Assembly (NCBI GenBank): GCA_964549685.1
Contig: CAZJVE010000003.1
Span: 17,706-81,705, forward strand
Reading direction: 5' to 3'
Source: an uncultured archaeon
GTDB lineage: Archaea; Altiarchaeota; Altiarchaeia; IMC4; QMZM01
Length of the DNA stretch: 64,000 nt
Each line of letters opens with the position of its first letter. Position 1 is the first letter of the stretch. The notes beneath the pieces are model-generated. The model was not told the origin of the DNA, did no database searches, and saw only the letters and a list, made by a program, of their open reading frames with translations. Positions 1 to 13,526 of this stretch are shown here, in pieces. The translations under genes were made by a program, and so were the position numbers.

Positions 1-23
1 ATAAAAGTGAAATGAGTTTCATT

Positions 24-830
24 CTAAAAACCAACCTGACAGGATTCCTCGTAGTCGATTAATTCCTTGATGGTTGGATTTTCTCCGCAGACAGGGCAGT
101 TTGGGTCTCTTTGGGTTCTGACCTCCCGAAAGCTCATCTCCAGAGCGTTATAAAGCAGGAGCCTATTTTTCAATAGGTCTCCTACACCGAGGATGTACTT
201 GAGCGCTTCTGTCGCCTGTATCAAGCCGACAACCCCCGGCAGGACGCCAAGGACTCCGGCTTCCTGACAGCTGGGAACCATTCCAGGAGGAGGCGGTTCC
301 GGGAAGAGGCACCTGTAGCATGCTCCTTCCTTTGGAATTATTGTGGTTGCCTGTCCCTCAAACCTGAACACGGAGCCATGAACCAGGGCCTTTCCTGCCA
401 AAACTGCGGCATCATTAACCAGGTAGCGTGTCGGAAAATTATCGCAACCGTCTACGATTACGTCATAGTCCTTTACTATATCAAGTATATTCTCGGATGT
501 CAGCCTCTCCTGATGCAGAATTACCTCTGTATCTGGATTAAGCAGCTCGATTTTTTCTTTTGCCGATATGGTCTTCTCCCCGTCAAGGTCCTTTACTGTG
601 TGGAGAATCTGCCTCTGGAGATTGCTAAGCTCTACCGTGTCAGAATCGACTATACCCAGCTTCCCTACCCCGGCAGCCGCGAGGTATATTGTTGAGGGGC
701 ATCCAAGCCCTCCCGCACCTATGGCAAGCACCCTGGCTTCGTTTATCTTCTTCTGTCCCTTCCCACCAACCTCTGGCAAGATTATATGCCTGCTATATCT
801 CTTTATCTGCTCCTCAGTAAATTCAACCAT
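24..830 (-). CDS. E1-like adenylyltransferase, ThiF/MoeB/UbaA family
   Basis: ORF 24..845. Motifs 'SRHIILPEVG' and 'LAIGAGGLGCP' (Rossmann fold), plus two CxxC pairs (CYRC, CPVC) as in the MoeB/ThiF zinc site. The track start at 845 is TTG. The first ATG (MVEFTEEQ) is at 830, 21 nt after the stop of the upstream GG protein. Confidence 0.9.
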   Translation of the reverse strand: MVEFTEEQIKRYSRHIILPEVGGKGQKKINEARVLAIGAGGLGCPSTIYLAAAGVGKLGIVDSDTVELSNLQRQILHTVKDLDGEKTISAKEKIELLNPDTEVILHQERLTSENILDIVKDYDVIVDGCDNFPTRYLVNDAAVLAGKALVHGSVFRFEGQATTIIPKEGACYRCLFPEPPPPGMVPSCQEAGVLGVLPGVVGLIQATEALKYILGVGDLLKNRLLLYNALEMSFREVRTQRDPNCPVCGENPTIKELIDYEESCQVGF

Positions 831-851
831 TTTGGGGATTCTCAACCAGTT

Positions 852-1127
852 TTAACCTCCTGCGATAGCAGGTACAATCGATACCTCACTGTCTTCATTC
901 ACCGAAGTATCAAGGCCTTCAGAGAACCTTATGTCTTCCCCGGCTACATAGATATTCACAAACCTTCTCACTTTTCCATCCTCATCGAGAAGCTTTTCCT
1001 TGATTCCAGCATATTGTTTATTCAGATTCTCTACCAGTTCCCTTACATTGCCGCCCTCAGAGTTCACCTCAAGTTCCCCCCCAGTCAGCTTGGTAAGGGG
1101 TGTCGGTATTCTAACTTTTATTGACAT
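852..1127 (-). CDS. MoaD/ThiS-family ubiquitin-like sulfur-carrier protein (SAMP-like), C-terminal Gly-Gly
   Basis: The translation ends '...VSIVPAIAGG' followed by the stop. Size is about 91 aa. An ATG at 1127 (MSIKVRIP) is preceded by GGAGGTGA. Lies immediately upstream of the E1-like gene. Confidence 0.85.
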   Translation of the reverse strand: MSIKVRIPTPLTKLTGGELEVNSEGGNVRELVENLNKQYAGIKEKLLDEDGKVRRFVNIYVAGEDIRFSEGLDTSVNEDSEVSIVPAIAGG

Positions 1128-1144
1128 GTTGTCACCTCCAATGA

Positions 1145-1158
1145 TTAACAATTGTTAA
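1145..1158. promoter_or_regulatory. Palindrome TTAACAATTGTTAA in the 5' leader of the GG-protein gene
   Basis: Perfect 14-nt palindrome between the predicted TATA box and the SD/ATG. A near-identical copy lies at 3242-3255. Confidence 0.5.
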
Positions 1159-1204
1159 TATATTAATGATAGTGATATTTGTATATAAATATTAATATGG
1201 TAAA

Positions 1205-1224
1205 AATATGCTAATATGCATAAT
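1205..1224. promoter_or_regulatory. Operator-like palindrome AATATGC-N6-GCATAAT upstream of the GG-protein/E1 operon
   Basis: One mismatch to ATTATGC-N6-GCATAAT. On the gene strand it lies 8-9 nt upstream of ATTAATATTTATATA (BRE/TATA). Confidence 0.65.
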
Positions 1225-1244
1225 TAATCCACTAAGGGCGTAAA

Positions 1245-1318
1245 AGCAGGGAGGGGGATTTGAACCCCCGATCGTCGGTCTGCAACCGACTGCCTTAACC
1301 GGGCTTGGCCACCCCTGC
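1245..1318 (-). tRNA. tRNA-Cys (GCA)
   Basis: The reverse complement folds as a cloverleaf: acceptor GCAGGGG/TCCCTGC, anticodon stem GTCGG/CCGAC with loop TTGCAGA (anticodon GCA), T arm GGGGG-TTCAAAT-CCCCC, discriminator U. 74 nt, no encoded CCA. Confidence 0.9.
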
Positions 1319-1399
1319 ACCGGGTTAAATGCTGTTGGGATATCAAAACGTATAAGGGTAAAAACAAGGGTAAATGTAATCACTGCCGTACGTTGGCAG

Positions 1400-1918
1400 C
1401 TATTGCTCTATTTTACACCAGTTCTTGTTGAATATTTCGCTGAAGGACAGGCCCTTCTGCTTTAGTCTCACATACTCCTCTAACTCTCTGATGAATCTTG
1501 TGGCCCATTTCTCAATCTCGGCCTTTACGTTCTCGTCGAGGTTGCTTCCCCGTCCGTATCCCGGGCATCCCCCGATTGCTTTCAATCTCAGTATGATTTC
1601 ATCCCCGTATGCTATGCCATTGAATTTGAACGGGAGCATCCTGCAGAACAGCGGCTGCTTGTCGATTTTATGCAGCTCGCAGGAATAATCGTCGTTCAGG
1701 AAGTGGCACTTTCCGTCATGCTCCCGGGTTTTGAGTCTGAACAACCCCGGCTTGTCCTCGCTGGAATGGATGAATTCCTCCGGCTTAAGCTTTGTGGCAT
1801 CGGAAATTCTCTTTATGCTGCCTATCGTTATCAGCGGCGGTTCGCAGCAAAATGCCTTGCATTCCTTGTATGCGCATTCCCACCTCTCTATTCCGTCTTT
1901 GGATATTATTTCAATCAT
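1400..1918 (-). CDS. YkgJ/UPF0153-type cysteine-cluster (Fe-S or Zn) protein
   Basis: N-terminal 'CAYKECKAFCC' (CxxxxCxxxCC) plus further conserved Cys (CHF, CELH, FCRMLP, GGCPGYG). Its ATG overlaps the stop of the upstream ThrC-like gene (ATGA). Confidence 0.6.
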   Translation of the reverse strand: MIEIISKDGIERWECAYKECKAFCCEPPLITIGSIKRISDATKLKPEEFIHSSEDKPGLFRLKTREHDGKCHFLNDDYSCELHKIDKQPLFCRMLPFKFNGIAYGDEIILRLKAIGGCPGYGRGSNLDENVKAEIEKWATRFIRELEEYVRLKQKGLSFSEIFNKNWCKIEQ

Positions 1919-3240
1919 TTTACCTCGTCCAGGAGTTGTTTAGCCTCGCTCTCGAATCCAAATTTTTTGCCGTATTCGAGTAAGTCGTCCTCTATCCTTC
2001 CATTCCCCGAACCGGTGATGTTTGCAACCACGACGCTGCCCTCTTTTAGGTCTCCCTGCCGCACCCCCTTTACAATACCGGCCAGGGTTACCCCGCCAAC
2101 GAATTGTGAAAATATTCCCTCCTTGAAATAGAGGTCAAGCGTGCTTTTGAGTATGTCTCCCTCACTGACGCCCCAGCCCCCTCCGTTGCTCTTTTTAATG
2201 ACATCTAAAGTTTGATACCCACTGCCGGGATTTCCGATGGCTATGCTCTTTGCAACGGTCTTTGGATTCTTTATTGGAACTATCTCCCCTGTTGATATTG
2301 CATCTATTATTGGAGAACAGTCCTCTGACTGGGCCCCCCACATCCTTACATCATTGTCGAACAGGCCAAGGTCTCTTAATTCCCCTATGCCCTTGTATGC
2401 GGAACAGAAGAGCGCGCCGCTTCCCAGAGGGTATACGATGTTTACAGCCCCGTCTTTTATCTGCTCCTTGAGCTGAAGCGCTATCTCTGTCCCCGAGGTT
2501 TTTGAGCCCTCCTTGTAGTATGGCCTGAAGCTGCTGTTCGGGACAAAGGATTTCTTTTTGCCGGTTTTTTTGAGTTCTTCCTCGTTTGCCTTCTCGCAAT
2601 CGTTCATGGCCTTGATGTTTGTCTCGTCATAGCTTCCATCGTACTCTATCAAATCGTTTGGATGGGGAAGGTAGTGTCGTATGGCATCCTTTTTAACCTC
2701 ACCCAGGCTTTCAGGCACATAGGCCCTGCAGGTTATGCCAGTTTCCCTTGCTAAATATGCAGTAGCTACAGCCAGGTTTCCTGTCGATGCTACATAGACA
2801 GTATTATAACCTGCTTCCAGGGCTTTGTTAAAGGCCAAAGTAACAGGCCTGTCCTTGAACGACCTTGTCGGGTTGGTTTCGGTTGAGTCTAATTTGAAGT
2901 ACAGTTCTATGCCAAGCTCGTCTCCAATCTCCTTCGACTTTACAAGCGGGGTGTATGGGGTTTCCCCGGATACAGCTACTTCATCCACTGGAAGGAGTTC
3001 CTTCAGCTTCCAGAAGTTGTCCGGTCTTTTGTTTAATTCATCCTCCGTGAGCACATCCCTTAGTGCATTGTAGTCGTACTTCACATCCAGCGGGCCCATG
3101 CAGAGGTCATAGCATATGTTCACCATGGTCGTGCCCTGCTCCTCTTTGAGCTTCTCCAGGCTGTATTTCTCGCCGCAGTTCAGGCATTCCAGATGACTTA
3201 CATAGCCAAACCCCGAGGTCGTATTATCCACGCTTTCCAT
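1915..3240 (-). CDS. Threonine-synthase-like fold-type II PLP enzyme with N-terminal zinc ribbon
   Basis: 441 aa. 'CLNCGEKY' ribbon, PLP-lysine context 'NPTRSFKDR', glycine-rich 'STGNLAVATA' and 'PLGSGAL' loops typical of ThrC and Trp-synthase-beta-like enzymes. Confidence 0.8.
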   Translation of the reverse strand: MESVDNTTSGFGYVSHLECLNCGEKYSLEKLKEEQGTTMVNICYDLCMGPLDVKYDYNALRDVLTEDELNKRPDNFWKLKELLPVDEVAVSGETPYTPLVKSKEIGDELGIELYFKLDSTETNPTRSFKDRPVTLAFNKALEAGYNTVYVASTGNLAVATAYLARETGITCRAYVPESLGEVKKDAIRHYLPHPNDLIEYDGSYDETNIKAMNDCEKANEEELKKTGKKKSFVPNSSFRPYYKEGSKTSGTEIALQLKEQIKDGAVNIVYPLGSGALFCSAYKGIGELRDLGLFDNDVRMWGAQSEDCSPIIDAISTGEIVPIKNPKTVAKSIAIGNPGSGYQTLDVIKKSNGGGWGVSEGDILKSTLDLYFKEGIFSQFVGGVTLAGIVKGVRQGDLKEGSVVVANITGSGNGRIEDDLLEYGKKFGFESEAKQLLDEVK

Positions 3241-3241
3241 G

Positions 3242-3255
3242 TTAACAATCGTTAA
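3242..3255. promoter_or_regulatory. Palindrome-like TTAACAATCGTTAA abutting the ThrC-like start codon
   Basis: TTAAC-N4-GTTAA inverted repeat directly upstream of ATG 3240. Homologous to 1145-1158. Confidence 0.5.
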
Positions 3256-3299
3256 TATTTATAATGTTGGTATTTTTATTTAAATATTAAGGGTATAGA

Positions 3300-3319
3300 A
3301 TTATGCATATCAGCATAAT
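3300..3319. promoter_or_regulatory. Operator-like perfect palindrome ATTATGC-N6-GCATAAT upstream of the ThrC-like/YkgJ operon
   Basis: On the gene strand it is followed after 9 nt by TTAATATTTAAATA (BRE/TATA), 37 nt before the ATG. Confidence 0.65.
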
Positions 3320-3327
3320 ATCATATT

Positions 3328-4134
3328 TTATACGTGTTTCCCACGCTGCCGTAGAATATCCTTCGTGTAATCCAGCCAGTGTTTCTCGGCCCTGACGAAA
3401 TTCCTCAGTATTCCAATTTTCTCAATCTCAATTTCAACGGTGTCTCGGTCGCTCAGTTTTCCAACGCATGGAACAGTCCCGGTTGCAATTAAATCCCCCG
3501 TCTCAAGCTTCATGAATCTGCTAACGAACCTTACGCATTCATCGGGAGAATATATCATATCCGAGGTTTTTGCGTCCTGTCTTAATTTCCCATTAACCCG
3601 GCAGCGTATTCTTAGGCTGTCTGGGTCCAGGTCGGTATTGACGTAAGGCCCCGTCGGGCAGAAGGTCGGGAAGCTCTTGGACGGGCTCCACTGACCCATG
3701 TCGTGCTGGATGTCTCTTGCTGTCACGTCGTTGACGATAGTATAGCCTAGGACGTGCTCCTGCGGATTTTCGATCCTATAGCCATCTTTCCCGATGATTA
3801 TTCCAAGCTCTGCCTCGTGGTCGACCCTGTCCGAGATATCCGGTAGAAGTATATTCTGATTATGTCCCAGCAACGAGCTCGGCGCCTTTAGGGCTATGGT
3901 TGGTTTTTTTGTCGCTATCTCCTTGAGTTGGATTGCATGCTTCCCGTAATTGAATCCTATGCAGGTTATTTTTCCCGGCTTTACGGGGGGTAGAAATTCT
4001 ACTTCCTCTTCCTTGTAAACTGCCCCGGTTTCCTTCCCGGGATTGAACAGATTTCCATCTATTTCCTTGATTTTACCAGGGGATGAAATCCCGATTTTTT
4101 CTAAATTCTCGACTTTGAACCTGCAGAGTTTCAC
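3328..4134 (-). CDS. Fumarylacetoacetate hydrolase (FAH) family protein
   Basis: 268 aa. 'MKLCRFKV...' N-terminus, 'DHEAELGIIIGK' and 'GDLIATGT' motifs typical of FAH/HpcE-type hydratases or decarboxylases. GTG start. Confidence 0.8.
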   Translation of the reverse strand: MKLCRFKVENLEKIGISSPGKIKEIDGNLFNPGKETGAVYKEEEVEFLPPVKPGKITCIGFNYGKHAIQLKEIATKKPTIALKAPSSLLGHNQNILLPDISDRVDHEAELGIIIGKDGYRIENPQEHVLGYTIVNDVTARDIQHDMGQWSPSKSFPTFCPTGPYVNTDLDPDSLRIRCRVNGKLRQDAKTSDMIYSPDECVRFVSRFMKLETGDLIATGTVPCVGKLSDRDTVEIEIEKIGILRNFVRAEKHWLDYTKDILRQRGKHV

Positions 4135-4193
4135 AGTCCTACCTCTTGGTTTAAGGATAGTTGATATTCTTGTTTAAATAGTATATACATAAA

Positions 4194-4213
4194 ATTATGC
4201 ACGTGCGCATAAT
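4194..4213. promoter_or_regulatory. Operator-like perfect palindrome ATTATGC-N6-GCATAAT in the divergent FAH / nadA-iscS-iscU promoter region
   Basis: Flanked on both sides by TATA-like boxes: ATTATTTATATG toward nadA after 9 nt, and TTTATGTATATA toward the FAH gene. Confidence 0.65.
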
Positions 4214-4259
4214 CATAACAATATTATTTATATGTCTCGGATGCACTATGGATAACGGG

Positions 4260-5168
4260 ATGGCTCAATCAGACATTGTGGGAAGGATCCAGAATTTGAA
4301 GAAGGATAGAAATGCGATTATCCTTGCCCATAACTATCAGCCCGGCGAGGTGCAGGACGTTGCGGATTATCTGGGGGATTCCCTGGAGCTCAGCAGGATT
4401 GCTGCAAAGAGCGAAGCCGAGGTTATTGTATTCTGTGGAGTGCATTTCATGGCTGAGACTGCTTCCATTCTATCGCCGGACAAAAAGGTTCTGTTGCCTG
4501 ACATAGACGCCAGATGCCCGATGGCCGACATGATTACCGCTGACGGCCTGAGGGAACTGAAGGCAAAACATCCCGACGCAAAGGTAGTCGGCTATGTCAA
4601 TACTACTGCAGATGTAAAGGCGGAGATGGATATCTGCTGTACATCAACCAATGCTATCAAGGTCATAAATTCTCTGGAGGGAGATGAGGTTATCTTCGTC
4701 CCAGACAAGTATCTGGCAGACTATGTCTCCAAGCACACTGACAAGAAGATTATACCATGGAACGGTTCCTGTCCAACCCATGTGAAGATAACGCCTGAAG
4801 ACATAGAGAAACAGAGGGGGCTTCATCCGGAGGCAAAGGTGATTGTGCACCCGGAATGTACGCCCGCAGTAATAGAGGTTGCTGATGAGGCCTTGTCAAC
4901 CGGCGGAATGTGTAAGTATGTGCGAGAGTCGAATGCCAGGGAATTCATCATCGGTACGGAGACCGGAATCATCCACAGACTCAAGAAGGAGAATCCGGAT
5001 AAGGAATTCTATCCTGCCTCGGAGCTGGCTGTCTGTCCGAACATGAAGAAGATAAACCTCGAGAAGGTGCTCTGGGCGCTTGAGGATATGAAACACGAGG
5101 TCAAGGTGCCTGAGGAAATCAGAATGAAGGCAAAACAAGCAGTCGACAGAATGCTTGAGATTGCATAG
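4260..5168 (+). CDS. nadA: Quinolinate synthase NadA
   Basis: 'AIILAHNYQPGEVQDVADYLGDSLELSR', 'FCGVHFMAETA', 'CPMA', 'CCTSTNA', 'HPEC'. The track start at 4197 lies inside an operator palindrome and adds a non-conserved hydrophobic leader. ATG 4260 (or 4248) sits about 25 nt downstream of a TTTATATG TATA box, which would make the transcript leaderless. Confidence 0.9.
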   Translation: MAQSDIVGRIQNLKKDRNAIILAHNYQPGEVQDVADYLGDSLELSRIAAKSEAEVIVFCGVHFMAETASILSPDKKVLLPDIDARCPMADMITADGLRELKAKHPDAKVVGYVNTTADVKAEMDICCTSTNAIKVINSLEGDEVIFVPDKYLADYVSKHTDKKIIPWNGSCPTHVKITPEDIEKQRGLHPEAKVIVHPECTPAVIEVADEALSTGGMCKYVRESNAREFIIGTETGIIHRLKKENPDKEFYPASELAVCPNMKKINLEKVLWALEDMKHEVKVPEEIRMKAKQAVDRMLEIA

Positions 5169-5169
5169 A

Positions 5170-6324
5170 ATGAAAAGAATCTATCTGGACCATGCGGCAA
5201 CCACTCCGGTGGACCCGGAGGTCAGGAAGGCGATGGAGCCCTTTCTTTCCGATAACTTCGGTAATGCCTCGTCACTGCACTCCTTTGGAAGGGAGACGAA
5301 GCAGGCGCTGGAGGAGAGCAGGGGGAAGATAGCTGAGAGGCTGGGCGCCAGCCCTGATGAGATAGTCTTCACCTCCAGAGGGACCGAATCCAATAACCTC
5401 GCGCTGAAGGGAGTCGCGTTCGCGAACAGGAAGAAGGGAAAGCACATTATAACATCAAAGATTGAGCACGACTGCGTCCTGAATTCCTGCAAGTGGCTGG
5501 AGAACGAGGGGTTCGAGGTGGAGTATCTGGATGTGGACAGGGAGGGATTTATTGACATGAGAAAGCTAGGGGATTCCATCAGAGACGATACGATTCTTGT
5601 CTCGATTATTCATGGAAATAATGAGATTGGAACAATTCAGAATCTCAAGGAAATAGGGAAAATCTGCTCGGAAAAGGACGTCTATTTCCATACCGATGCC
5701 TGTCAGAGCTTCACAAAGGTTCCACTGGACGTCGGGAAACATAATCTCGACCTTGTCACGATAAATTCCCACAAGATTTACGGGCCAAAGGGGGTAGGAG
5801 CTCTGTTTGTCAGAAAGGGCACGAGAATCATCCCGTGGCAGCACGGCGGCGGCCATGAATTCAACAAGCGCAGCGGGACGGAAAATATTCCCGCCATAGT
5901 TGGATTTGCGAAGGCGACTGATGTTACGGGGGAGAAGGAGATTCAGCACATGACCGGGTTGAGGGATAGGCTGATTGCTGAAATCCCTGGAGAATTCCCT
6001 GACTCCTGGCTGAACGGCCCCAAGGAGAATAGATTGTGCAACAATGCAAACTTCTCATTCAAGCATATTGAAGGCGAGTCCATAGTCCTACGAATGGACC
6101 AGAAGGGTATTGCGGTATCGACGGGTTCGGCCTGCTCATCCCACTCATTGGAGCCCAGTCACGTCATGATTGCAATAGGTCTCAAGCCGGAAGAAGCTCA
6201 TGGAAGCGTCAGGATTACTGTGGGTAAGGAGAATACAATGGAGGAAATAGAGTTTGCGATAGAATCTCTCAGGGAGGTGACTGACGGGCTCAGGAAGATG
6301 AGCCCATTCGTGAAAAATGTATAG
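5170..6324 (+). CDS. iscS: Cysteine desulfurase (NifS/IscS class)
   Basis: 'IYLDHAATTPVDPEV', 'SIIHGNNEIGTIQ', 'NSHKIYGPKG' (PLP Lys), 'STGSACSS' (active-site Cys loop). ATG at 5170, 2 nt after the nadA stop. The track start at 5155 is TTG. Confidence 0.92.
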   Translation: MKRIYLDHAATTPVDPEVRKAMEPFLSDNFGNASSLHSFGRETKQALEESRGKIAERLGASPDEIVFTSRGTESNNLALKGVAFANRKKGKHIITSKIEHDCVLNSCKWLENEGFEVEYLDVDREGFIDMRKLGDSIRDDTILVSIIHGNNEIGTIQNLKEIGKICSEKDVYFHTDACQSFTKVPLDVGKHNLDLVTINSHKIYGPKGVGALFVRKGTRIIPWQHGGGHEFNKRSGTENIPAIVGFAKATDVTGEKEIQHMTGLRDRLIAEIPGEFPDSWLNGPKENRLCNNANFSFKHIEGESIVLRMDQKGIAVSTGSACSSHSLEPSHVMIAIGLKPEEAHGSVRITVGKENTMEEIEFAIESLREVTDGLRKMSPFVKNV

Positions 6325-6682
6325 CGACAAGGTCATAGACCACTTCAACAACCCCAGGAACATGGGCGAGATTCCGGACGCTGATGGGATTGGGAAGGTC
6401 GGAAACCCAGTCTGCGGAGATGTGATGTACATCTACATCAAGGTCAAGGACGACAGGATAACGGATATAAAGTTCAAGACCATGGGTTGCGCAGCAGCAA
6501 TAGCAACCAGCAGCATAATAACCGAACTTGCCAAGGGAAAGACACTGGACGAGGCGATGAAGATTACAAAAGAAAGCGTCTCCGATGCTCTGGAAGGCCT
6601 GCCTCCAATAAAGCAGCACTGCTCCAATCTTGCTGCTGACGGCCTTCATAAGGCGATTGAAAACTATATAGGGAAAAAATAA
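6317..6682 (+). CDS. iscU: Fe-S cluster scaffold IscU/NifU N-terminal type
   Basis: 'VIDHFNNPRNMG', 'GNPVCGD', 'FKTMGCAAAIATSS', 'HCSNLAADGLHKAI'. Three conserved Cys. Overlaps the desulfurase stop by 8 nt. Confidence 0.92.
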   Translation: MYSDKVIDHFNNPRNMGEIPDADGIGKVGNPVCGDVMYIYIKVKDDRITDIKFKTMGCAAAIATSSIITELAKGKTLDEAMKITKESVSDALEGLPPIKQHCSNLAADGLHKAIENYIGKK

Positions 6683-6710
6683 GGATTTATTAATCTGTTC
6701 CTATAGAATT

Positions 6711-6732
6711 CTATAATGATTTTTCATTATAG
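6711..6732 (+). terminator. AT-rich hairpin with T5 tract downstream of iscU (possible terminator)
   Basis: CTATAATGA-TTTT-TCATTATAG is a perfect 9-bp inverted repeat. A T5 run spans the loop. Located 29 nt after the iscU stop. Archaeal terminators are oligo-T based, so this call is tentative. Confidence 0.35.
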
Positions 6733-6738
6733 ACCCGT

Positions 6739-6788
6739 TAGATAGAGAATGTATGTAGATGGATTAATAGATAGAGAATGTATGTAGA
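6739..6788 (+). repeat. Perfect 21-nt tandem direct repeat TAGATAGAGAATGTATGTAGA (period 29)
   Basis: Copies at 6739-6759 and 6768-6788. The second copy contains the ATG at 6778 of the first gene of the downstream operon. The first copy has the same ATG followed by an early stop. Confidence 0.9.
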
Positions 6789-7170
6789 CTATATAAATCT
6801 TATTAACGGTAGCATACTGGTTGGCCTTATCCTCCTTGCAATGTATTTTGTAGTCATGAATATGCGCACCTTCCTTCTGCCGGAGCACGTGGGCCACGTG
6901 GTTGCTTTCGGTCCCGGTGGTGAGGCTGACAACGTTCTCGGAATCTACAAAGACTGCAACTCCTGCCAGATATCCGAGAATTCGGGCAGGCTTGCCTTCC
7001 CTATCAAGATAAAGCTGGACGATAAATCGGTAGTTGACGCGGAGATAAGTCCCTGCTCCCTCTGCATGGATAAGGTAAAGGTGGGGGACAAGGTGGGGGT
7101 AACAACGGTCGGTTCCAGGTGCATTGCACAGAAGCTTGGTAAATTCACAATCCACCATAAGTCAGACTAA
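6778..7170 (+). CDS. Small membrane-anchored Cys-rich protein (hypothetical), first gene of the 13-gene operon
   Basis: 130 aa. Hydrophobic N-terminal helix 'GSILVGLILLAMYFVVMNM', two CxxC pairs (CNSC, CSLC). No family recognised. Start uncertain because of the tandem repeat. Confidence 0.5.
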   Translation: MYVDYINLINGSILVGLILLAMYFVVMNMRTFLLPEHVGHVVAFGPGGEADNVLGIYKDCNSCQISENSGRLAFPIKIKLDDKSVVDAEISPCSLCMDKVKVGDKVGVTTVGSRCIAQKLGKFTIHHKSD

Positions 7171-7171
7171 A

Positions 7172-8536
7172 ATGATGCTCTTGGGCTTGGATGTGTTGGG
7201 TCTCATCGGACTGGTGATGTTTTTTGGAGTCCTGATAGCCTCTCTTAAGGGATGGATTCCACAGGACGTACTGCCCGTGCAGTCGGCACTTGTTCTGACC
7301 GCCCTTGTGCTGGTTATTGTCGCTTTCCTCTTCGGTAAGCCAATAGGGATTAAGGATTTGATGGCGAATATCTTCCTCCATCCGATTACAGCATTAATCG
7401 GCGGTTTTCTTGTTGCGGGGGCACTGGAGGCGTCCGGGGCCTTCAAGGCTGCCATTAATCTCCTGGAGAAACTGGCGAAAACGCCGCTCGGTTTAACAGG
7501 GACTGTTGTTGTCCTGGTGAATATGCCCACAATCTTTGCGATGCCCTGTGGGAGAATTCTCGCTGCTGCATTAATGCCGGCGGCAATTCTGTTCGGCTTC
7601 ACCCTCGCAAAGGTCAAAAAGGATACGCTTCTCGCGAGCATAGTTGTCTTTGGCTTTATTGTCAATGCTGCTGCCTCCTGTGGACCCTCGCCGCTTGGAG
7701 GCATCGGGATGATTGGCGAGGGGATGGGCGGCTACCCACTTGGTTCTTTCATAAATGCTCAGCAGATAGGCATTATGTTGATAACGGCAGTTGCAATGAT
7801 ATCTGTAAGATTTGTCTATAAGATTCTTCCCAATGAGTCCATAACAGCAAAGCTCCTTGCGGAGGAGTCCGGAGAGGATGAGGGAGAGGAGAAGAATAAG
7901 GGAGAAAAGAAGGTGGAGATTCCGAAGTCCGGTTATTTTTCATTTTTCTTCTTCATGGTCGGGATTGCCATCGTGTTTATAGCAAGGCCACCGATTCCGA
8001 TACAGACAATCCTCATGTTCTTCGTGCTGGTTATAATGTTAGCCAGCAGGGTATCGATAAAGGACCTGATAGGTGGGGTGATACTGCACCCGATAATGGC
8101 CATGATATCCGGCTTTATAATTGCAGGGGCTCTTGTGGCCATCGGCAGCTTCGATGTCCTGATTCAGATTCTTATGGTCATAGCGGAAACTCCGCTTGGC
8201 TTTATAGGTGTTGTTGTCATCCTTGCGAATATCCCGACAATCCTGCCCATGCCCTGTGGAAGGATAATAGCCATGGCGTTGATGCCCGGCATACTTATGT
8301 TTGGTCTGAGGGTCAGTGAGATAACAGGGAATGTATGGATAGTTCCGCTGGTGCTGGTGGGGTTCATAATTAATGCTGCTGCCTCCTGCGGCCCTTCGCC
8401 GCTTGGAGGCATCGGCGGAATTGGCGAGGGCAACCTTGGAACGGCAATAGGAATCTCAGGACGGCCGCAGCAGGTCGGGATAATGATAGGGACAGGGACA
8501 GCGGTGCTGATAATAGGCATGGTGGGGTTTATCTAA
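7172..8536 (+). CDS. Polytopic membrane transporter with internal two-fold duplication and conserved Cys motifs (family not recognised)
   Basis: Both halves carry 'LHPI(T/M)A(L/M)I(G/S)GF', 'ETPLG / KTPLG', 'MPCGRI(L/I)A(A/M)ALMP' and 'INAAASCGPSPLGGIG'. An acidic linker 'EESGEDEGEEKNKGEKK' joins them. ATG-ATG at 7172, 1 nt after the previous stop. The track start at 7124 is TTG. Confidence 0.75.
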   Translation: MMLLGLDVLGLIGLVMFFGVLIASLKGWIPQDVLPVQSALVLTALVLVIVAFLFGKPIGIKDLMANIFLHPITALIGGFLVAGALEASGAFKAAINLLEKLAKTPLGLTGTVVVLVNMPTIFAMPCGRILAAALMPAAILFGFTLAKVKKDTLLASIVVFGFIVNAAASCGPSPLGGIGMIGEGMGGYPLGSFINAQQIGIMLITAVAMISVRFVYKILPNESITAKLLAEESGEDEGEEKNKGEKKVEIPKSGYFSFFFFMVGIAIVFIARPPIPIQTILMFFVLVIMLASRVSIKDLIGGVILHPIMAMISGFIIAGALVAIGSFDVLIQILMVIAETPLGFIGVVVILANIPTILPMPCGRIIAMALMPGILMFGLRVSEITGNVWIVPLVLVGFIINAAASCGPSPLGGIGGIGEGNLGTAIGISGRPQQVGIMIGTGTAVLIIGMVGFI

Positions 8537-8842: not shown

Positions 8843-9322
8843 ATGGAAAAGAGACTAAGGCAATTCAACGTGGGGATGTTCATGATAGCGGCATTGATCC
8901 TGGGGGCTCTGGTCTTTACGGGCTTCATGTCGGGGCATCCATGGGCCCTGACCTGCTACCAGTGCAAGGCATGTAACCTCAAGTGCCCCTTGGGCTATGA
9001 CGTTTCACTTTTTGTGGCGGCATCGGCAACGAACAATCCCAATCTTTATATGAGCGCAACGAATCTCCAGCTCACAGTGGAAGAGGCCTATGAAACCGAC
9101 AGGAATATGCTGGTGGAGGTTGAGGGGAAAAAGATGACGGCTGAGGAGGCCCATGGAGAATTCAAACCGGACATGGTGGTCTGGGCAAGGAAGCTCAGGG
9201 TTAAGGACGCTGCGAAATTCGACCCGATAGACGGGTACTGCGACAGCCTGTGTCCAATAGGCCTGCCGGTAACCAATGCGATAAGAGACCTCAAATCGGA
9301 CGGGGAATTCAACGGAAGATAA
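8843..9322 (+). CDS. Single-pass membrane-anchored ferredoxin-like protein (one complete CxxCxxCxxxCP motif plus a CxxxCP remnant)
   Basis: N-terminus 'KRLRQ' then helix 'FNVGMFMIAALILGALVFTGF'. Motifs 'CYQCKACNLKCP' and 'CDSLCP'. HdrC/SdhB-like spacing with a helical insert between the motifs. Confidence 0.65.
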   Translation: MEKRLRQFNVGMFMIAALILGALVFTGFMSGHPWALTCYQCKACNLKCPLGYDVSLFVAASATNNPNLYMSATNLQLTVEEAYETDRNMLVEVEGKKMTAEEAHGEFKPDMVVWARKLRVKDAAKFDPIDGYCDSLCPIGLPVTNAIRDLKSDGEFNGR

Positions 9323-9325
9323 AAA

Positions 9326-9931
9326 ATGGATAAGAAGAATCTCGTAATGTTTTTGGCGATAATGGGGGTCCTGGTGGCCCTCTCCTATGTAAACATGCTC
9401 GGCGAGGGGGCTGAGTTAGTGAGAAAGGGAAAGCCGATAATCAGGGAGGCCTTCTCAGATGCCGATTATAAGATGGAAATAACCGACGGGAAGCTGTTAG
9501 TAAAATTTGCCTCATATGTTGCAAACGAGTACGAAGGCGAGTTCCTTGCAGTCTATGCCTATGACGCTGATGGAAACCACGTAATGAAGATGAAGAGGGT
9601 AGTCAATGGAAATATCGTCATAAACAAGGACGAGATTCCAAGCTTCGTGGCGAGCTTTGAAGGCAATGTGATAAAGGATATCGAAAAGGCCGAACAGTCG
9701 CTCAGGTTCCTGGAGATATTGCAGGATGCAAAAAGGGAGGGTAGAAACCTCGGGGTTGAGAGGTGCCTCATGGGCAAGAGATGCATAGCCATCTGTCCTG
9801 CAGCAGCAATAGAGGTGCTGATAAGGGATGATGAAAGCAACGGCAGAATCATCCCAGACATAGATTACGATAAATGCATCGAGGGCGGTTTATGTGCCAG
9901 CAGGTGTCCAACCGATTTGATAGTAACATAG
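9326..9931 (+). CDS. Single-pass membrane-anchored protein with C-terminal ferredoxin-like domain carrying two C-x5-C-x3-CP motifs
   Basis: Helix 'LVMFLAIMGVLVALSYV'. 'CLMGKRCIAICP' and 'CIEGGLCASRCP'. In both motifs the second Cys of the canonical CxxCxxCxxxCP is replaced by Gly. Confidence 0.65.
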   Translation: MDKKNLVMFLAIMGVLVALSYVNMLGEGAELVRKGKPIIREAFSDADYKMEITDGKLLVKFASYVANEYEGEFLAVYAYDADGNHVMKMKRVVNGNIVINKDEIPSFVASFEGNVIKDIEKAEQSLRFLEILQDAKREGRNLGVERCLMGKRCIAICPAAAIEVLIRDDESNGRIIPDIDYDKCIEGGLCASRCPTDLIVT

Positions 9932-9932
9932 G

Positions 9933-10286
9933 ATGACAAGGATAACAGAAGTAACAAGAACTGGGAAGAGGGGAAAGATTGCGGTATTCTTCCTTATAGC
10001 GGCAGTCCTGGGTCTTGGTCTCCTGCTGGTGGAAAAAGACGCCAGCAAATTCAATGCCCAGTGCCCGAGGGATTACTTCTGCGATAACAAATGCCCCGTG
10101 GATGCAATATCTCTCGACGAGCACGGGTTCCCCCAGATTGACAAGAGCGTATGCCTGTCATGGGTCCCCGAGAAAGATGAATTCGATTGGGATAAGTGCG
10201 GCCTGTGCCTGCAGGGGTGCCCTACAAGAGTCATAGATTTGCTGAACAGTGATTTTGAAGAAAGGGAAAAACACACGTTGAATTAA
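9933..10286 (+). CDS. Single-pass membrane-anchored ferredoxin-like protein with degenerate Cys motifs
   Basis: Basic N-terminus 'TRTGKRGK', helix 'IAVFFLIAAVLGLGLLLV'. 'CPRDYFCDNKCP' (central Asp replaces Cys) and 'CGLCLQGCP'. Confidence 0.6.
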   Translation: MTRITEVTRTGKRGKIAVFFLIAAVLGLGLLLVEKDASKFNAQCPRDYFCDNKCPVDAISLDEHGFPQIDKSVCLSWVPEKDEFDWDKCGLCLQGCPTRVIDLLNSDFEEREKHTLN

Positions 10287-10287
10287 G

Positions 10288-11112
10288 ATGGATGAAAAGG
10301 AGGAAAACCCAAAGAAGGAGAATAATGGGGTGAATCAGAAGAAGCTCAGGAAGGCTAGCCAGGTCCTGGTGTTGATTCTAGTCCTGGTCCTAACTTATTT
10401 GGTATACAGCGTGGCATTCTCTGTCTGCTGGCTGGACCCGATGTGGCACCTACAGGCATTGTTCGCTAACAGGTTTGATACAGGTACGGATACGTACTTC
10501 ATGGAGGGGCTGACGAGAATTTTTGTCCCTTCCGTCCTCATCCTTGGGGCCTTCGTATTCCTTGCAATACTTTTCGGTAGGATATTCTGCGGCTGGTTCT
10601 GTCCGTTTGGAACCATGCTCGATTACATAGAGGGGATAAGCCCGTTCAGAGGGAAGCTTCATTTCCCAAGAGAGCTTAAAGACCCGGGCATAAAGTATTC
10701 AATACTCATAGGTTTCCTAATCCTTTCCCTTATGACGTCGCAGGAGGCCTTCTGCGAATTCTGTCCTGCAGGCACCGTATTAAAGGGGCTTACGGGGCAT
10801 GTAATCTTCCTCTCGATTCCCGTCTTTATAGTGACCCTGTTTATCGTCCTCTTCTACGGAAGAAAGACGTGGTGCTCCTATCTCTGCCCCTTGGGGGCGT
10901 TCTTTGCACTCTTTACCAGATTCCACCTTTTCGGAATCAGAGCAAATAAGGAGGATTGCGTAAAATGCTTCATGTGCGACAAGGCATGCCCTATGGACGT
11001 CCTCGTAGTTGAGAAGTACATCCAAGAGGGTAAAAAAATAAACGACCCCGAATGCATCAAGTGCATGGATTGCGTTGATGCGTGCCCAAGAAAGATACTA
11101 AAGTTTCCGTAA
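10288..11112 (+). CDS. NapH/MauN/NosR-like integral membrane polyferredoxin
   Basis: Membrane-embedded 'CGWFCPFG' and 'WCSYLCPLG' (CxxxCP) motifs. C-terminal canonical 2x[4Fe-4S] motifs 'CVKCFMCDKACP' and 'CIKCMDCVDACP'. Confidence 0.8.
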   Translation: MDEKEENPKKENNGVNQKKLRKASQVLVLILVLVLTYLVYSVAFSVCWLDPMWHLQALFANRFDTGTDTYFMEGLTRIFVPSVLILGAFVFLAILFGRIFCGWFCPFGTMLDYIEGISPFRGKLHFPRELKDPGIKYSILIGFLILSLMTSQEAFCEFCPAGTVLKGLTGHVIFLSIPVFIVTLFIVLFYGRKTWCSYLCPLGAFFALFTRFHLFGIRANKEDCVKCFMCDKACPMDVLVVEKYIQEGKKINDPECIKCMDCVDACPRKILKFP

Positions 11113-11113
11113 A

Positions 11114-11902
11114 ATGGTAGCATACCAGTTCATAACATCGGGAATAGCATCCATGTTGATACTGACTCCGTTAGCCATGATACTGTACATGGTTCTCAGG
11201 GACAAGGGGGCTGCCGTCCTCTGCATGGAGTGTCAGCAGTGCAGGGCCGTGTGTCCCGTAATTCGGGCCCATGACAGTTATGCAGGGCCGAAGGACATAA
11301 TGGTTGCCGTAAAATCCGGTAAATACGACCTGGCCCTGCAGGGAAACGCCGAATTATGCGCCTCCTGCGCCGCATGCACGGAGCGTTGTCCGAGAAAGCT
11401 GGGAGCAGACGAGGAAACAACAGGTATAGTATCAGCAGAAATGGAGGACATATTCGGCAGGGATACGATAAAATACATGGAGGGAATCCCCAACCCAAAG
11501 ATGCAGCGAACCTATGAGGCGGTTATCAGAAGATTTGAGGGTAAGAAAACGGGCCTTCCATGGGACTGGGTAACCAAGAGTACACGGCTCAGGAAATTTT
11601 ATAATCCAATAGAGGACAAGCCGATGAAGGCCCAGATTAAGACACAGATTCCCGAGGCCGGGATGTCCCTTCTCACAGCAAAAGCAAATCTTTTCGGGGA
11701 AACTCCCCCCGAGCCGAAAGAGAGAGAAACTCCATCCGAAAGAGAGGCCGGGTTCGCAAAGCCGGATGGGGAGAAAACGTGTGAGATGGAAACGGAGAAG
11801 TCAAAACCTGCTGAACCCGTGGTGAAAGAAAAACCTGGTGAAGGGGAAGCAAAACCTGAGGAAAAATCTGAATCCAAAGAACAAAATGGCGGAGAAGTTT
11901 GA
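11114..11902 (+). CDS. HdrC-like 2x[4Fe-4S] subunit with N-terminal TM anchor and long E/K/P-rich C-terminal tail
   Basis: Helix 'ITSGIASMLILTPLAMILYMVL'. 'CMECQQCRAVCP' ... 'CASCAACTERCP' with a helical spacer, as in HdrC and SdhB C-terminal domains. Last ~90 aa are low complexity: 'PPEPKERETPSEREAG...KPGEGEAKPEEKSESKEQ'. Confidence 0.7.
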   Translation: MVAYQFITSGIASMLILTPLAMILYMVLRDKGAAVLCMECQQCRAVCPVIRAHDSYAGPKDIMVAVKSGKYDLALQGNAELCASCAACTERCPRKLGADEETTGIVSAEMEDIFGRDTIKYMEGIPNPKMQRTYEAVIRRFEGKKTGLPWDWVTKSTRLRKFYNPIEDKPMKAQIKTQIPEAGMSLLTAKANLFGETPPEPKERETPSEREAGFAKPDGEKTCEMETEKSKPAEPVVKEKPGEGEAKPEEKSESKEQNGGEV

Positions 11903-12659
11903 GATACCGGAACGGCTGATATTTTTCGAGGGATGCACGACCTCAAGGCTATTGAAGGAGATGAGACTCGCAACCTATGTAATCCTGGAGAGGGCAGTCG
12001 AGAAGGGAATCATAAAGGAGTACACGGTTCTCCCGAATGAGAGGTGCTGCGGTTATGCCTCGATGGTGATGGGGGACTTCAAGAACCAGAATAAATGCCT
12101 TATCTTCAACCTGGACCAGATGACACGGCTCGGGATAAAGGATGTGTTCTTTACATGCGGGGCATGCACTCACTTCATGGGCGACTCTCCCGAATTCAGG
12201 GCACGGGGTTTCAGGCCGATAAACATCATGGAGTTCCTGTATGCATTGATAAAGAACGGGCAGTTTGACAAGCTGATAGATAGGAAGCTCCCGAAAGGCT
12301 TCAAGATTACAGGCCATTATTCATGTCATCTGAGAAGGCTCTCAGGATTGAAGATGGATGAACTTTATAAGGAGATTGCAAACGCCCTGGGGGCAGAGTA
12401 TGTTGAGATGCCCGATGCAACGGATTGTTGCGGGGCCGGCTCGGAGGGTAAGGTGGCAATAGAGATTGCAAAGAGGAAGGTTGAGAGCGCTGACAAAACC
12501 GATGCAGATATATGCCCACTGGCCTGTGCGGGCTGCGAAGCAATTCTAAGCATAGTCTCGAAGCAGAGTAAGAGCAAAACGAAATTTACCTCGCTGTCGA
12601 CTGTAATCGCGAGTTGTATGACAGACCTTGATAAAAGGATTGAAAAACTAAATAAATAG
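11886..12659 (+). CDS. HdrB-like protein with two CCG cysteine-rich domains
   Basis: 'FFEGCTTS...ERCCGYAS...FTCGACTHF' and 'HYSCHLRR...DCCGAGSE...CPLACAGCE' match the C..CCG..CxxC pattern twice, as in the canonical HdrB at 18410..19249. ATG at 11886 (MAEKFEIP) overlaps the previous gene by 17 nt. Confidence 0.8.
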   Translation: MAEKFEIPERLIFFEGCTTSRLLKEMRLATYVILERAVEKGIIKEYTVLPNERCCGYASMVMGDFKNQNKCLIFNLDQMTRLGIKDVFFTCGACTHFMGDSPEFRARGFRPINIMEFLYALIKNGQFDKLIDRKLPKGFKITGHYSCHLRRLSGLKMDELYKEIANALGAEYVEMPDATDCCGAGSEGKVAIEIAKRKVESADKTDADICPLACAGCEAILSIVSKQSKSKTKFTSLSTVIASCMTDLDKRIEKLNK

Positions 12660-12683: not shown

Positions 12684-13526
12684 GTGAAAGCTATAGAATA
12701 CCTAGTAAAGCTGATGAAAAGTCAGGAGGGCGAGTGGAAGGTAGAGGAGTTGATGACGAAGGAGGTCATAACCATAGAGCCGGAAGCCACCGTCCATGAT
12801 GCCGTTGAGAAGATGAGGAAGTATGGAATCCATGGTATCATAGTTGCAAAAGATGATGATATGCTAGGTATTGTCAGCTATTATGACATTCTTCTCCTGA
12901 TGGCAGGTAGGGAGCATGGGAAAAATGTCAGGGTGGAGGAGATAATGAATACTGACCTGATAACGGTTGATTCTGAAGAGGACATAATGGACTGCCTTGA
13001 GTTAATGCTGAAGAATCACGTCCTGAGATTGCCTGTTTTGGATAGTGGCAAATTAGTGGGGATTATAACAACTACGGATTTTGTAAACGTATTCGACAAG
13101 GGCTTTGATGGTGAGGGGTCTTTCCATGCCAAAAAAAGTCCTGAATTGGTGGCTGAGAACATAATGCATAAGCCAGTTGTAATGATAGAGCCCAACAAGA
13201 GTGTTTTTGAGGCGGCAAAGCTTATGACTGATAAGAACATCGGCTCTCTGGTTATAAACGACAACTGTAAGATTGGAATTGTTACGGAGAGTGACATCTT
13301 TAAGAGGGTCGTTGCCAAGGGCAAGGACAGCAGGAAGACAAAGGTGGGTGATGTTATGACCACCCCTTGCAAGACGGTGGGTCCAGATGCCGATATAATC
13401 GAGGCCAGCAGGATATTCCACGACAACGACATAAGGAGGCTGCCTGTTGTTGAAGACTGCAAGGTTATCGGTATAATGGCAGTCGAGGACATCATAGATA
13501 CCATATCCCTGAGGAGAAGGTTCTAA
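12684..13526 (+). CDS. CBS-domain protein (four tandem CBS motifs)
   Basis: Repeated 'LMTKEVITIEP...', 'IMNTDLITVD...', 'IMHKPVVMIEP...', 'VMTTPCKTVGP...' units with 'RLPV(L/V)' ends. The start at 12684 is GTG. An alternative ATG at 12714 is possible. Confidence 0.85.
   Translation: MKAIEYLVKLMKSQEGEWKVEELMTKEVITIEPEATVHDAVEKMRKYGIHGIIVAKDDDMLGIVSYYDILLLMAGREHGKNVRVEEIMNTDLITVDSEEDIMDCLELMLKNHVLRLPVLDSGKLVGIITTTDFVNVFDKGFDGEGSFHAKKSPELVAENIMHKPVVMIEPNKSVFEAAKLMTDKNIGSLVINDNCKIGIVTESDIFKRVVAKGKDSRKTKVGDVMTTPCKTVGPDADIIEASRIFHDNDIRRLPVVEDCKVIGIMAVEDIIDTISLRRRF

Follow-up and report, generated by a model that had tools for sequence, protein, structure and literature searches.

The 64,000-nt stretch of DNA analysed here at its full length (the window; Altiarchaeota contig CAZJVE010000003.1, positions 17,706 to 81,705) contains three copies of a 20-bp inverted repeat, ATTATGC-N6-GCATAAT, which we call palA. 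We propose that palA is the operator of a family of regulators, each joining an XRE-type helix-turn-helix domain (Pfam HTH_3) to a pair of CBS domains, and that it defines a regulon of sulfur amino-acid and S-adenosylmethionine (SAM) metabolism. On comparative sequence grounds we give this reading a probability of about 0.7; taken as a part by itself, physical binding of the regulator to palA seems highly probable. The observations that carry the proposal are the sites, their conservation in relatives, their fixed geometry relative to the TATA box, the co-occurrence of the motif with the regulator gene, and the covariation of Arg or Lys at residue 34 of the regulator with G or T in the operator.

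palA sites in the window

The three sites precede genes for a sulfur-carrier protein with a GG terminus (GG protein) and an E1 enzyme, for a ThrC-like enzyme and a Cys-rich (CxxCxxCC-like) protein, for an FAH-family protein, and for nadA-iscS-iscU.

1205..1224: palA site 1, AATATGC-TAATAT-GCATAAT (one mismatch), candidate operator upstream of the GG-protein/E1 promoter
3300..3319: palA site 2, perfect, candidate operator upstream of the ThrC-like/CxxCxxCC promoter, with the FAH stop codon 8 nt away
4194..4213: palA site 3, perfect, common to the divergent FAH (minus strand) and nadA-iscS-iscU (plus strand) promoters

A motif scan of the 64 kb bore out these three copies, which a preliminary description of this DNA had reported, and at two or fewer mismatches it returned no others, in agreement with the statement made there that no further intergenic copy had been found by eye. 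All three copies were intergenic and within promoters, and all three matched the inverted repeat TATKC-N6-GMATA with A/T-rich flanks. At two or fewer mismatches, 3 matches to ATTATGC-N6-GCATAAT were observed against 0.26 expected, and at least 3 were reached by 1 of 100 shuffles. The generalised core TAT[GT]C-N6-G[AC]ATA identified the same three sites against 0.21 expected (at least 3 in 0 of 200 shuffles). We observed no excess of weaker sites in the window, as one-mismatch matches to the core (9 versus 6.6 expected) were at background. The treatment of sites 1 and 2 as independent occurrences did not hold, because a stretch of about 100 nt in the GG promoter has a paralogous counterpart in the ThrC-like promoter. 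The paralogous stretch (1120-1245 versus 3233-3335, minus strand) consists of palA, the B recognition element (BRE) and TATA box, a spacer with AWAATAYCA, and then a second palindrome, palB. The internal GG promoter was present even where no tRNA gene lies between the genes (11844-11922 in the related locus L014).

A candidate regulator with HTH_3 and CBS domains

The preliminary description found no regulator gene evident beside the sites; this stands within the window, and relatives of the cluster reveal a strong candidate, a protein with HTH_3 and a CBS pair. In locus L018, whose ThrC-like protein is 80% identical to that of the window, a gene for a 187-aa protein with HTH_3 and a CBS pair is oriented divergently to the ThrC-like gene. 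The Woesearchaeota locus L008 has a homologue directly ahead of a palA site and iscS, and another, in L003, lies 6 kb from the cluster with its own motif copy (TTATTCCTAAAGGAATA) abutting a TATA-like element. In L003, L008 and L018 the regulator gene shares its contig with a ThrC-like cluster that bears palA, and on the basis of these relatives its presence in the genome of the window is assumed. Pfam annotation of the other candidates in the window gave an ArsR-type winged helix-turn-helix protein (32340-33038) and a PAS protein, neither of them adjacent to the sites nor recurrent.

We then considered 80 metagenomic loci (518,556 bp), retrieved by alignment and chosen only for encoding an HTH_3+CBS protein. 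The strict motif was observed 67 times in these loci against 2.5 expected (27-fold; maximum 7 in 50 shuffles), counts that are not independent, many of the loci being close relatives. Upstream sequence of 80 nt or more was available for 75 loci; 51 of these had a strict copy within 300 nt upstream of the regulator gene, and 23 of the remaining 24 had a one-mismatch copy at the same place, for a total of 74 of 75. The modal distance from the motif centre to the regulator ATG was 37-38 nt. A divergent open reading frame was observed in 63 of 76 regulator loci, and 54 of these 63 were methionine, SAM or cysteine genes: 28 HcyBio+CBS (HcyBio being the archaeal sulfur-incorporating homocysteine enzyme), 14 bacterial-type MetK, 7 archaeal SAM synthetase, 2 SepCysS-like, 2 Cys_Met_Meta_PP and 1 ThrC-like gene with a GG carrier. 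The regulator gene and a homocysteine or SAM gene nearly always lie on either side of one common operator, and among the loci of the relatives and these divergent neighbours no other DNA-binding gene recurs beside the sites.

The family comprised 664 clusters at 50% identity (E <= 1e-30), all of about 185 aa, with members named by source as Altiarchaeota, Burarchaeum, Methanobacteriota and Jordarchaeales; one member adjoins a formylmethanofuran-dehydrogenase-type gene set, as read from the Pfam list. No NCBIfam model was passed by the family, and sequence and fold searches of the PDB matched the CBS pair only, with no solved full-length structure found. The AlphaFold model was confident (predicted local distance difference test, 88.7) and contained a helical helix-turn-helix at residues 6-62 followed by a Bateman module. 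Across the homologue alignment the recognition helix, GVSQSLIA(R/K)IE, was nearly invariant, and the motif G-h-h-T-x-x-D of the second CBS domain was invariant (G174, D180). This sequence fits the ribose-binding motif of CBS domains that bind adenosyl ligands.

Covariation of residue 34 with the half-site

A neighbour-joining tree was built from the 80 regulators together with those of L018, L003, L008 and L103. The 12 regulators with a TATGC half-site in their own operator formed one contiguous clade, which included L018 and L103 (Altiarchaeota relatives). Position 34, within the recognition helix, was Arg in 12 of 12 members of this TATGC clade and Lys in all 68 of the others, which are of the TATTC type. 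The simplest reading of this pattern is an Arg-guanine contact at the variable half-site position. Since the half-sites in the window are TATGC, an Arg-34-type regulator would be expected in this genome.

Conservation of palA and its predicted targets in other archaea

Phylogenetic footprinting, a check suggested in the preliminary description, was carried out on loci whose ThrC-like protein is 64-90% identical to that of the window, and palA was found upstream of the orthologous ThrC-like, GG and E1 genes at the same distance from the TATA box where the flanks had diverged. The motif, in the generalised form TTATKC-N6-GMATAA, was kept in most of the related Altiarchaeota and Woesearchaeota loci. 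All three sites were observed at orthologous places in L014 (86% identical), with different spacers and diverged flanks, and L001 (90%) showed the same pattern. Orthologues of site 1 were at 3075-3094 in L001 and 11844-11863 in L014, and those of site 3 at 88-107 in L001 and, with one degenerate half, at 9024-9043 in L014. Orthologous or analogous copies of site 2 were present in L001, L014, L019, L003, L004, L006, L005, L021, L007 and L008; in the more distant loci the site precedes the ThrC-like gene or an iscS-ThrC-like operon. These copies include a perfect site in L019 (ATTATGCATATATGCATAAT), TATATGCATTAATGCATAAT in L003 together with GTTATGCTGAATAGAATAAT ahead of its GG gene, TTTATTC-N6-GCATAAW in L004 and L006, and the type ATTATTCC-N4-GGAATATT in L005, L021, L007 and L008. 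In an alignment of 11 upstream regions from Altiarchaeota and Woesearchaeota the only invariant columns were TAT.C, G.ATA and the TATA box, and a matrix built from 76 distinct sites had the same core as the sites of the window. At the ThrC-like homologue of the bacterial candidate phyla radiation (CPR) loci L009-L013 the motif was absent.

Beyond the ThrC-like cluster, the motif was observed ahead of cysH-cysD-cysN in L005 and, in L003, between the ThrC-like gene and a divergent cystathionine-beta-synthase/Cys_Met_Meta_PP operon. Other putative archaeal targets were HcyBio+CBS, SAM synthetase, SepCysS-like and Cys_Met_Meta_PP (O-acetylhomoserine-sulfhydrylase-like) genes and a radical-SAM gene. 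The nadA-iscS-iscU and FAH genes bear the site in the lineage of the window only. The preliminary description had proposed a sulfur and Fe-S regulon; of this the sulfur theme was retained, and Fe-S assembly gave way as the core, across archaea, to homocysteine, SAM and cysteine metabolism. The predicted core of the regulon across archaea is HcyBio, SAM synthetase, SepCysS, the O-acetylhomoserine-sulfhydrylase-like enzyme and cysHDN.

Two further features were observed upstream of particular genes. The ThrC-like gene of L003 has a leader of about 190 nt (9810-9998) with many short GC-rich hairpins, downstream of palA and the TATA box, for which no Rfam family scored above threshold (best, the cspA thermoregulator, 26 bits versus a gathering score of 78). 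In L025 (2005) and L057 (4930) HcyBio is preceded by two operator copies, AGTATGCATAAATGCATAGA and, about 55 nt further downstream, AAATGCATAAATGCATAAAA, and no TATA box is present at the usual offset; the two copies may form a pair of operators with a different logic.

Promoter geometry around palA

Read toward the GG/E1, ThrC-like and FAH genes, the 20-mer is followed by 15 nt and then by an 8-nt TATA box, the 15-nt spacer being made up of 8-9 nt and, as its last six, a 6-nt A-rich BRE-like block.

1182..1196, minus strand: BRE-like block and TATA box of the GG/E1 promoter (TATA TTTATATA at 1182-1189, 15 nt after palA)
3277..3290, minus strand: BRE-like block and TATA box of the ThrC-like promoter (TATA TTTAAATA at 3277-3284, 15 nt after palA)
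4171..4178, minus strand: TATA box of the FAH promoter, TTTAAACA, 15 nt after palA site 3
4227..4234, plus strand: TATA box of the nadA promoter, TTTATATG, 13 nt after palA site 3

The palindrome had been placed 8-9 nt upstream of the TATA box; the position is indeed fixed, and the exact spacing is corrected to 15 nt (13 for nadA) with the BRE-like block included. For FAH, the box with the conserved spacing is TTTAAACA (4171-4178) and not TTTATGTATATA, which abuts the palindrome and had been assigned this role. That site 3 serves two divergent promoters agreed with our analysis, in which TATA boxes were observed at conserved spacing on both its FAH and nadA sides.

The same geometry was observed elsewhere. 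In a curated set of target promoters, matches to the TATA box peaked at offset 15 (20 of 31 promoters) and offset 13 (19 of 31), with at most 4 matches beyond about 2 nt of these two offsets, and all four promoter directions in the window have this target geometry (offset 15 for three, 13 for nadA). On the divergent side of the regulator loci the TATA box was at offset 15 in 29 of 69 and at 13 in 19 of 69. Some bases of the spacer were also conserved (tcTTTCAnaaa). At targets the operator is upstream of the TATA box, with 29 bp between the two centres; this puts it at about -55 relative to the start site, immediately past the BRE. On the regulator-gene side, the operator either touches or overlaps the TATA box or is found 15-17 nt downstream of it and only 4-30 nt from the ATG. 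On the regulator's own gene, the operator is located on the predicted core promoter or start site.

The geometry also bears on the start of nadA. Its TATA box (4227-4234) is too close to the ATG at 4248, so that transcription is predicted to start near 4257, a position taken from the usual archaeal TATA-to-start distance, giving a near-leaderless mRNA from the ATG at 4260. The true nadA start is likely this ATG rather than the in-frame ATG at 4248.

A second palindrome, palB

The preliminary description made no mention of palB (TTAACRATTGTTAA; general form TTAACRATYGTTAA), which covers the point where transcription from the GG/E1 and ThrC-like promoters is predicted to begin.

1145..1158: palB copy 1, TTAACAATTGTTAA, between the TATA box and the ATG of the GG gene
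3242..3255: palB copy 2, TTAACAATCGTTAA on the plus strand, abutting the ThrC-like ATG

Copies were observed in several relatives (L001 at 1046 and 3141; L003 at 458, 1286, 9622 and 11461; L006 at 352; L014 at 9986 and 11909; L018 at 7021 and 7205), and L103 has a near-copy, TTAAACAATTGTTAA, around 311. All the Altiarchaeota copies of palB fall between a TATA box and an ATG, a place typical of repressor sites. The palindrome precedes sulfur amino-acid genes and also a molybdopterin oxidoreductase operon in L018 and a secreted protein of no assigned function in L003. Binding of palB by the factor of palA was rejected, as palB was found 0 times against 1.0 expected in the 80 regulator loci, which implies that palB would be a separate operator of a different factor.

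A gene for a small HTH_3 protein with a Cys-rich C-terminal tail was observed 5-8 kb from the cluster in L014 (17899-18258) and L003 (2944-3252), and by synteny it would be just past the left end of the window. This protein may be a regulator that senses metal or sulfide, and it is a candidate binder of palB, with no link to palB found. DUF169-MarR fusions in L018 and L006 were also considered as palB binders and could not be linked to it.

Genes in the window and their inferred role

The gene assignments of the preliminary description (E1, GG protein, ThrC-like, Cys-rich protein, FAH, NadA, IscS/NifS and IscU) were upheld, and a tRNA gene was added to them.

24..845, minus strand: ThiF/MoeB/UbaA-type E1 adenylyltransferase
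852..1127, minus strand: ThiS/MoaD/SAMP-like sulfur-carrier protein with a GG terminus
1245..1318, minus strand: tRNA-Cys(GCA), between two palA-controlled units, absent from the preliminary description
1400..1918, minus strand: Cys-rich 172-aa protein (YkgJ/CxxCxxCC-like), translationally coupled to the ThrC-like gene
1915..3240, minus strand: ThrC-like pyridoxal-phosphate enzyme with an N-terminal Cys4 ribbon, a putative MetM-like thiocarboxylate-dependent homocysteine synthase
3328..4134, minus strand: FAH-family protein
4248..5168, plus strand: nadA, quinolinate synthase, with in-frame ATGs at 4248 and 4260
5170..6324, plus strand: iscS/nifS cysteine desulfurase
6317..6682, plus strand: iscU/nifU scaffold

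The closest relatives of the ThrC-like protein (64-90% identity) were from metagenome-assembled genomes of Altiarchaeota and Woesearchaeota, and in all of them the module of ThrC-like protein, GG carrier and E1, sometimes with the Cys-rich protein, was conserved; in Woesearchaeota iscS precedes it. The Cys-rich protein was kept in L001, L002, L014, L018 and L108 and absent from the rest of the module family. It had no Pfam, NCBIfam or PDB match, and its L108 orthologue matched PF03692 (CxxCxxCC) weakly.

A threonine-synthase homologue (MetM), a thiocarboxylated carrier (MetO) and a MoeZ-type E1 have been described as converting O-phosphohomoserine to homocysteine, as outlined in the GapMind 2026 preprint (10.1101/2024.10.14.618325). 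The system of Streptomyces (Hasebe et al. 2024, as given in the GapMind preprint) has the same parts list as the module here, namely a ThrC homologue, a ThiS-like GG carrier and a MoeZ/ThiF-type E1, and these three occur together in one conserved cluster. The likeness is one of gene parts list: the window has in addition the Cys-rich protein and the Cys4 ribbon on the ThrC-like enzyme, and no Mec-type protease was seen here. We infer a similar role for the ThrC-like/GG/E1 module, that is, homocysteine synthesis. Indirect support for this comes from the control of HcyBio or Cys_Met_Meta_PP by what appears to be the same operator in other archaea. HcyBio and SAM synthetase were themselves absent from the window and from the sampled Altiarchaeota ThrC-like loci.

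Several further features were observed around the module. The tRNA-Cys(GCA) gene moves with the cluster: it is between the Cys-rich and GG genes in the window and L001, after E1 and directly before SepCysS in L014 (12975-13047), and between GG and E1 in L018 (about 4675-4750). Its travelling with the cluster suggests a functional tie between the module and Cys-tRNA/SepCysS. Downstream of the module in the Altiarchaeota-like locus L108 (3318-10686) come genes for PAPS reductase, TauE, ATP sulfurylase, TusA, two subunits of sulfite reductase, DUF169 and SepCysS, a complete sulfate-to-thiol island; no palA was seen ahead of the first gene of the island. Since NIL domains are found alongside methionine transport and HcyBio systems, their occurrence near ThrC-like genes is a pointer to homocysteine; the gene directly upstream of the ThrC-like homologue in the CPR loci L009-L012 ends in a NIL-like sequence, read by eye, and the Altiarchaeota locus L021 has a Pfam-called NIL gene inside the cluster (12173-12409). 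In the window, a stand-alone protein with four CBS domains (12684-13526) follows a ferredoxin/CCG-domain cluster (8843-12659) and shows synteny with L014. This protein, distinct from the regulator, is a further adenosyl-ligand sensor close to sulfur genes.

Proposed mechanism and alternative explanations

In the mechanism that we propose, a dimer of the protein of about 185 aa (N-terminal XRE-type HTH_3, C-terminal CBS pair) would dock on palA with one helix-turn-helix per TTATKC half-site. At targets, the factor would sit at about -55, beyond the BRE, and help to recruit TFB and TBP. That the spacing stays rigid across phyla and genes speaks for a direct protein contact with TFB/TBP and favours activation; from position, activation rather than repression at the targets is slightly the better supported choice. 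The targets in this genome would be the ThrC-like/CxxCxxCC genes (site 2), the sulfur carrier and E1 (site 1) and, served by site 3 in both directions, FAH and nadA-iscS-iscU. With the operator on the TATA box or start site of its own gene, the factor would repress itself by occluding TBP/TFB or RNA polymerase. The CBS pair may sense an adenosyl metabolite, SAM or a relative, and would so tie the expression of homocysteine, SAM and sulfur-transfer genes to the methyl cycle. A SAM-type ligand is a tentative assignment, with the odds a little below even. In the simplest logic the ligand-free form would bind and activate when SAM is low, the alternative being ligand-dependent co-repression. A second, separate factor would bind palB over the start site of two promoters.

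Several observations weigh against the proposal as a whole or against its breadth. The regulator gene was not found in the window, where a tblastn search with the L018 regulator returned only the CBS-only protein at 12684-13526, and the relatedness of many of the 80 regulator loci reduces the weight of their counts. The Arg/Lys covariation traces to a single clade and hence to one evolutionary event, and L003 is an exception to it, with a Lys-type regulator and a TATGC target site. In the L002/L108 lineage (ThrC-like protein 76% identical) no site was present in the approximately 120-190 nt upstream of the ThrC-like gene, and palA as a universal element upstream of this gene was rejected on that ground. 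The iscS promoters of three other lineages were likewise without the site, so that iscS was rejected as a universal member of the regulon and Fe-S membership is lineage-specific.

The alternative that survives best retains the same factor and operator but has the factor act as a co-repressor at its targets, the ligand-bound dimer blocking TFB/BRE or oligomerising over the core promoter. Homocysteine, SAM and sulfur genes would then be shut off when product is plentiful, as by MetJ in E. coli. We regard this as a real contender, though less probable than activation. End-product repression is the usual logic of biosynthetic regulons, the factor is in a repressing position on its own promoter, and the conserved spacer bases could extend its footprint toward the BRE. 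However, the 20-mer itself stops 8-9 bp short of the BRE-like block and 15 bp short of the TATA box, and its spacing is rigid across phyla and unrelated genes. The sites of known archaeal repressors cover the BRE/TATA or the transcription start, whereas the activators Ptr2 and TFB-RF1 bind just upstream of the BRE. Moreover, two of the promoters already hold an element in the repressor position, palB.

It is unlikely that palA is bound by some other factor and that the HTH_3+CBS gene is just a frequent, co-regulated member of the regulon. Regulator genes can be targets of other regulators, and the window, without an HTH_3+CBS gene, does encode the ArsR-type protein at 32340-33038. Yet the motif is on the regulator's own promoter in nearly all of the regulator loci (74 of 75), the operator variant tracks both the phylogeny of the regulator and the residue in its recognition helix, and no second DNA-binding gene is recurrent beside the sites.

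We consider it very improbable that the palindromes act as RNA hairpins, whether as a terminator or processing signal after FAH and tRNA-Cys or as a 5' regulatory stem. Site 2 begins 8 nt past the FAH stop and site 1 lies 20 nt past tRNA-Cys, and the hairpins, although weak, have folding energies of -4.3 to -7.3 kcal/mol, slightly more favourable than those of shuffled sequences. Against this, 18 of the 76 distinct sites (24%) mix G-type and T-type halves, which breaks the pair, and no covariation was observed. Site 3 and most foreign sites are between divergent genes and upstream of both TATA boxes, an Rfam scan of positions 1-8000 found tRNA-Cys only, and archaeal termination relies on oligo-T tracts and not on hairpins. 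The RNA-stem reading was rejected for its mixed half-sites, weak folding, position upstream of the TATA box and lack of an Rfam match. Chance, or a functionless by-product of local promoter duplication, is the least probable explanation, for although sites 1 and 2 are in paralogous promoters and one shuffle in 100 reached three matches, the motif and its spacing survive where flanks have diverged and before unrelated genes, and the motif is enriched 27-fold in the regulator loci.

Relation to known regulators

A close archaeal comparison is SurR of Thermococcales, likewise a sulfur-linked factor that regulates itself and whose effect is set by the position of its palindrome relative to BRE/TATA. 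SurR is a winged-helix protein with a redox CxxC switch, whereas the candidate here is an XRE helix-turn-helix with a CBS pair, and the regulon of SurR concerns hydrogenase versus S0 reduction, that proposed here homocysteine, SAM and cysteine biosynthesis. The SurR motif is GTTn3AAC (extended, GTTn3AACn5GTT), and the palA sequence contains no GTTn3AAC. As for position, the operators of Ptr2 (M. jannaschii) and TFB-RF1 (P. furiosus) also adjoin the BRE on its upstream side and keep a set distance to the TATA box, and these factors stimulate TBP/TFB recruitment; their families (Lrp/AsnC, and TrmB-like or other) and motifs differ from those here, where activation is suggested by geometry.

Co-ordinate control of homocysteine synthesis, SAM synthetase and sulfur assimilation in Proteobacteria is outlined in PMC4239095. 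The same physiological job as that of the proposed palA regulon is done by MetJ, SahR, McbR, CymR and S-box (SAM) riboswitches, which belong to unrelated families (RHH, ArsR, TetR, Rrf2) or are RNA, none of them archaeal and none with a CBS sensor. A DNA-binding module joined to CBS domains is described for BCARR (PMC3795697). Together with CcpN of Bacillus subtilis, SpxR and HhpR, BCARR shares with the candidate the combination of a DNA-binding module and small-molecule-sensing CBS domains. Membership of the regulator in the CcpN, HhpR or SpxR families was rejected, since its matches were domain-level and far below the NCBIfam cut-offs (CcpN, 24.5 bits versus 260; HhpR, 25-31 versus 520; SpxR, 32-34 versus 600) and domain order and helix-turn-helix type differ. 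A full-text literature search, with subscription-only papers outside it, returned nothing on the regulator family, COG3620, XRE/CBS proteins, the operator or an archaeal methionine/SAM regulon. The factor, operator and regulon are of a known kind; the family, the archaeal sensor architecture, the regulon and the rigid geometry appear to be undescribed.

Significance

In the searchable literature we found no archaeal transcriptional regulator of methionine, SAM or homocysteine described, and the HTH_3+CBS family is without a curated name. The comparative data define a 20-bp operator, a protein, a predicted specificity residue (Arg/Lys-34 versus G/T) and a predicted class of ligand. It is possible, at odds a little below even, that the regulator is an archaeal master regulator of homocysteine and SAM synthesis across phyla (Altiarchaeota, DPANN, Asgard), sensing an adenosyl ligand, activating its targets from a rigid position one BRE width upstream of TFB and repressing itself through the same operator; the window would then show one local arm of this wider regulon. 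As a corollary, the ThrC-like/carrier/E1 module would be the homocysteine synthase of this lineage, replacing HcyBio inside a conserved regulon. The rigid operator-BRE-TATA geometry offers a clean model for activation in the eukaryote-like transcription of archaea. The regulatory evidence also lends support to a role of the ThrC-like/carrier/E1 cluster of Altiarchaeota, DPANN and CPR in homocysteine synthesis, which would fill a gap in the metabolic reconstruction of these uncultured groups.

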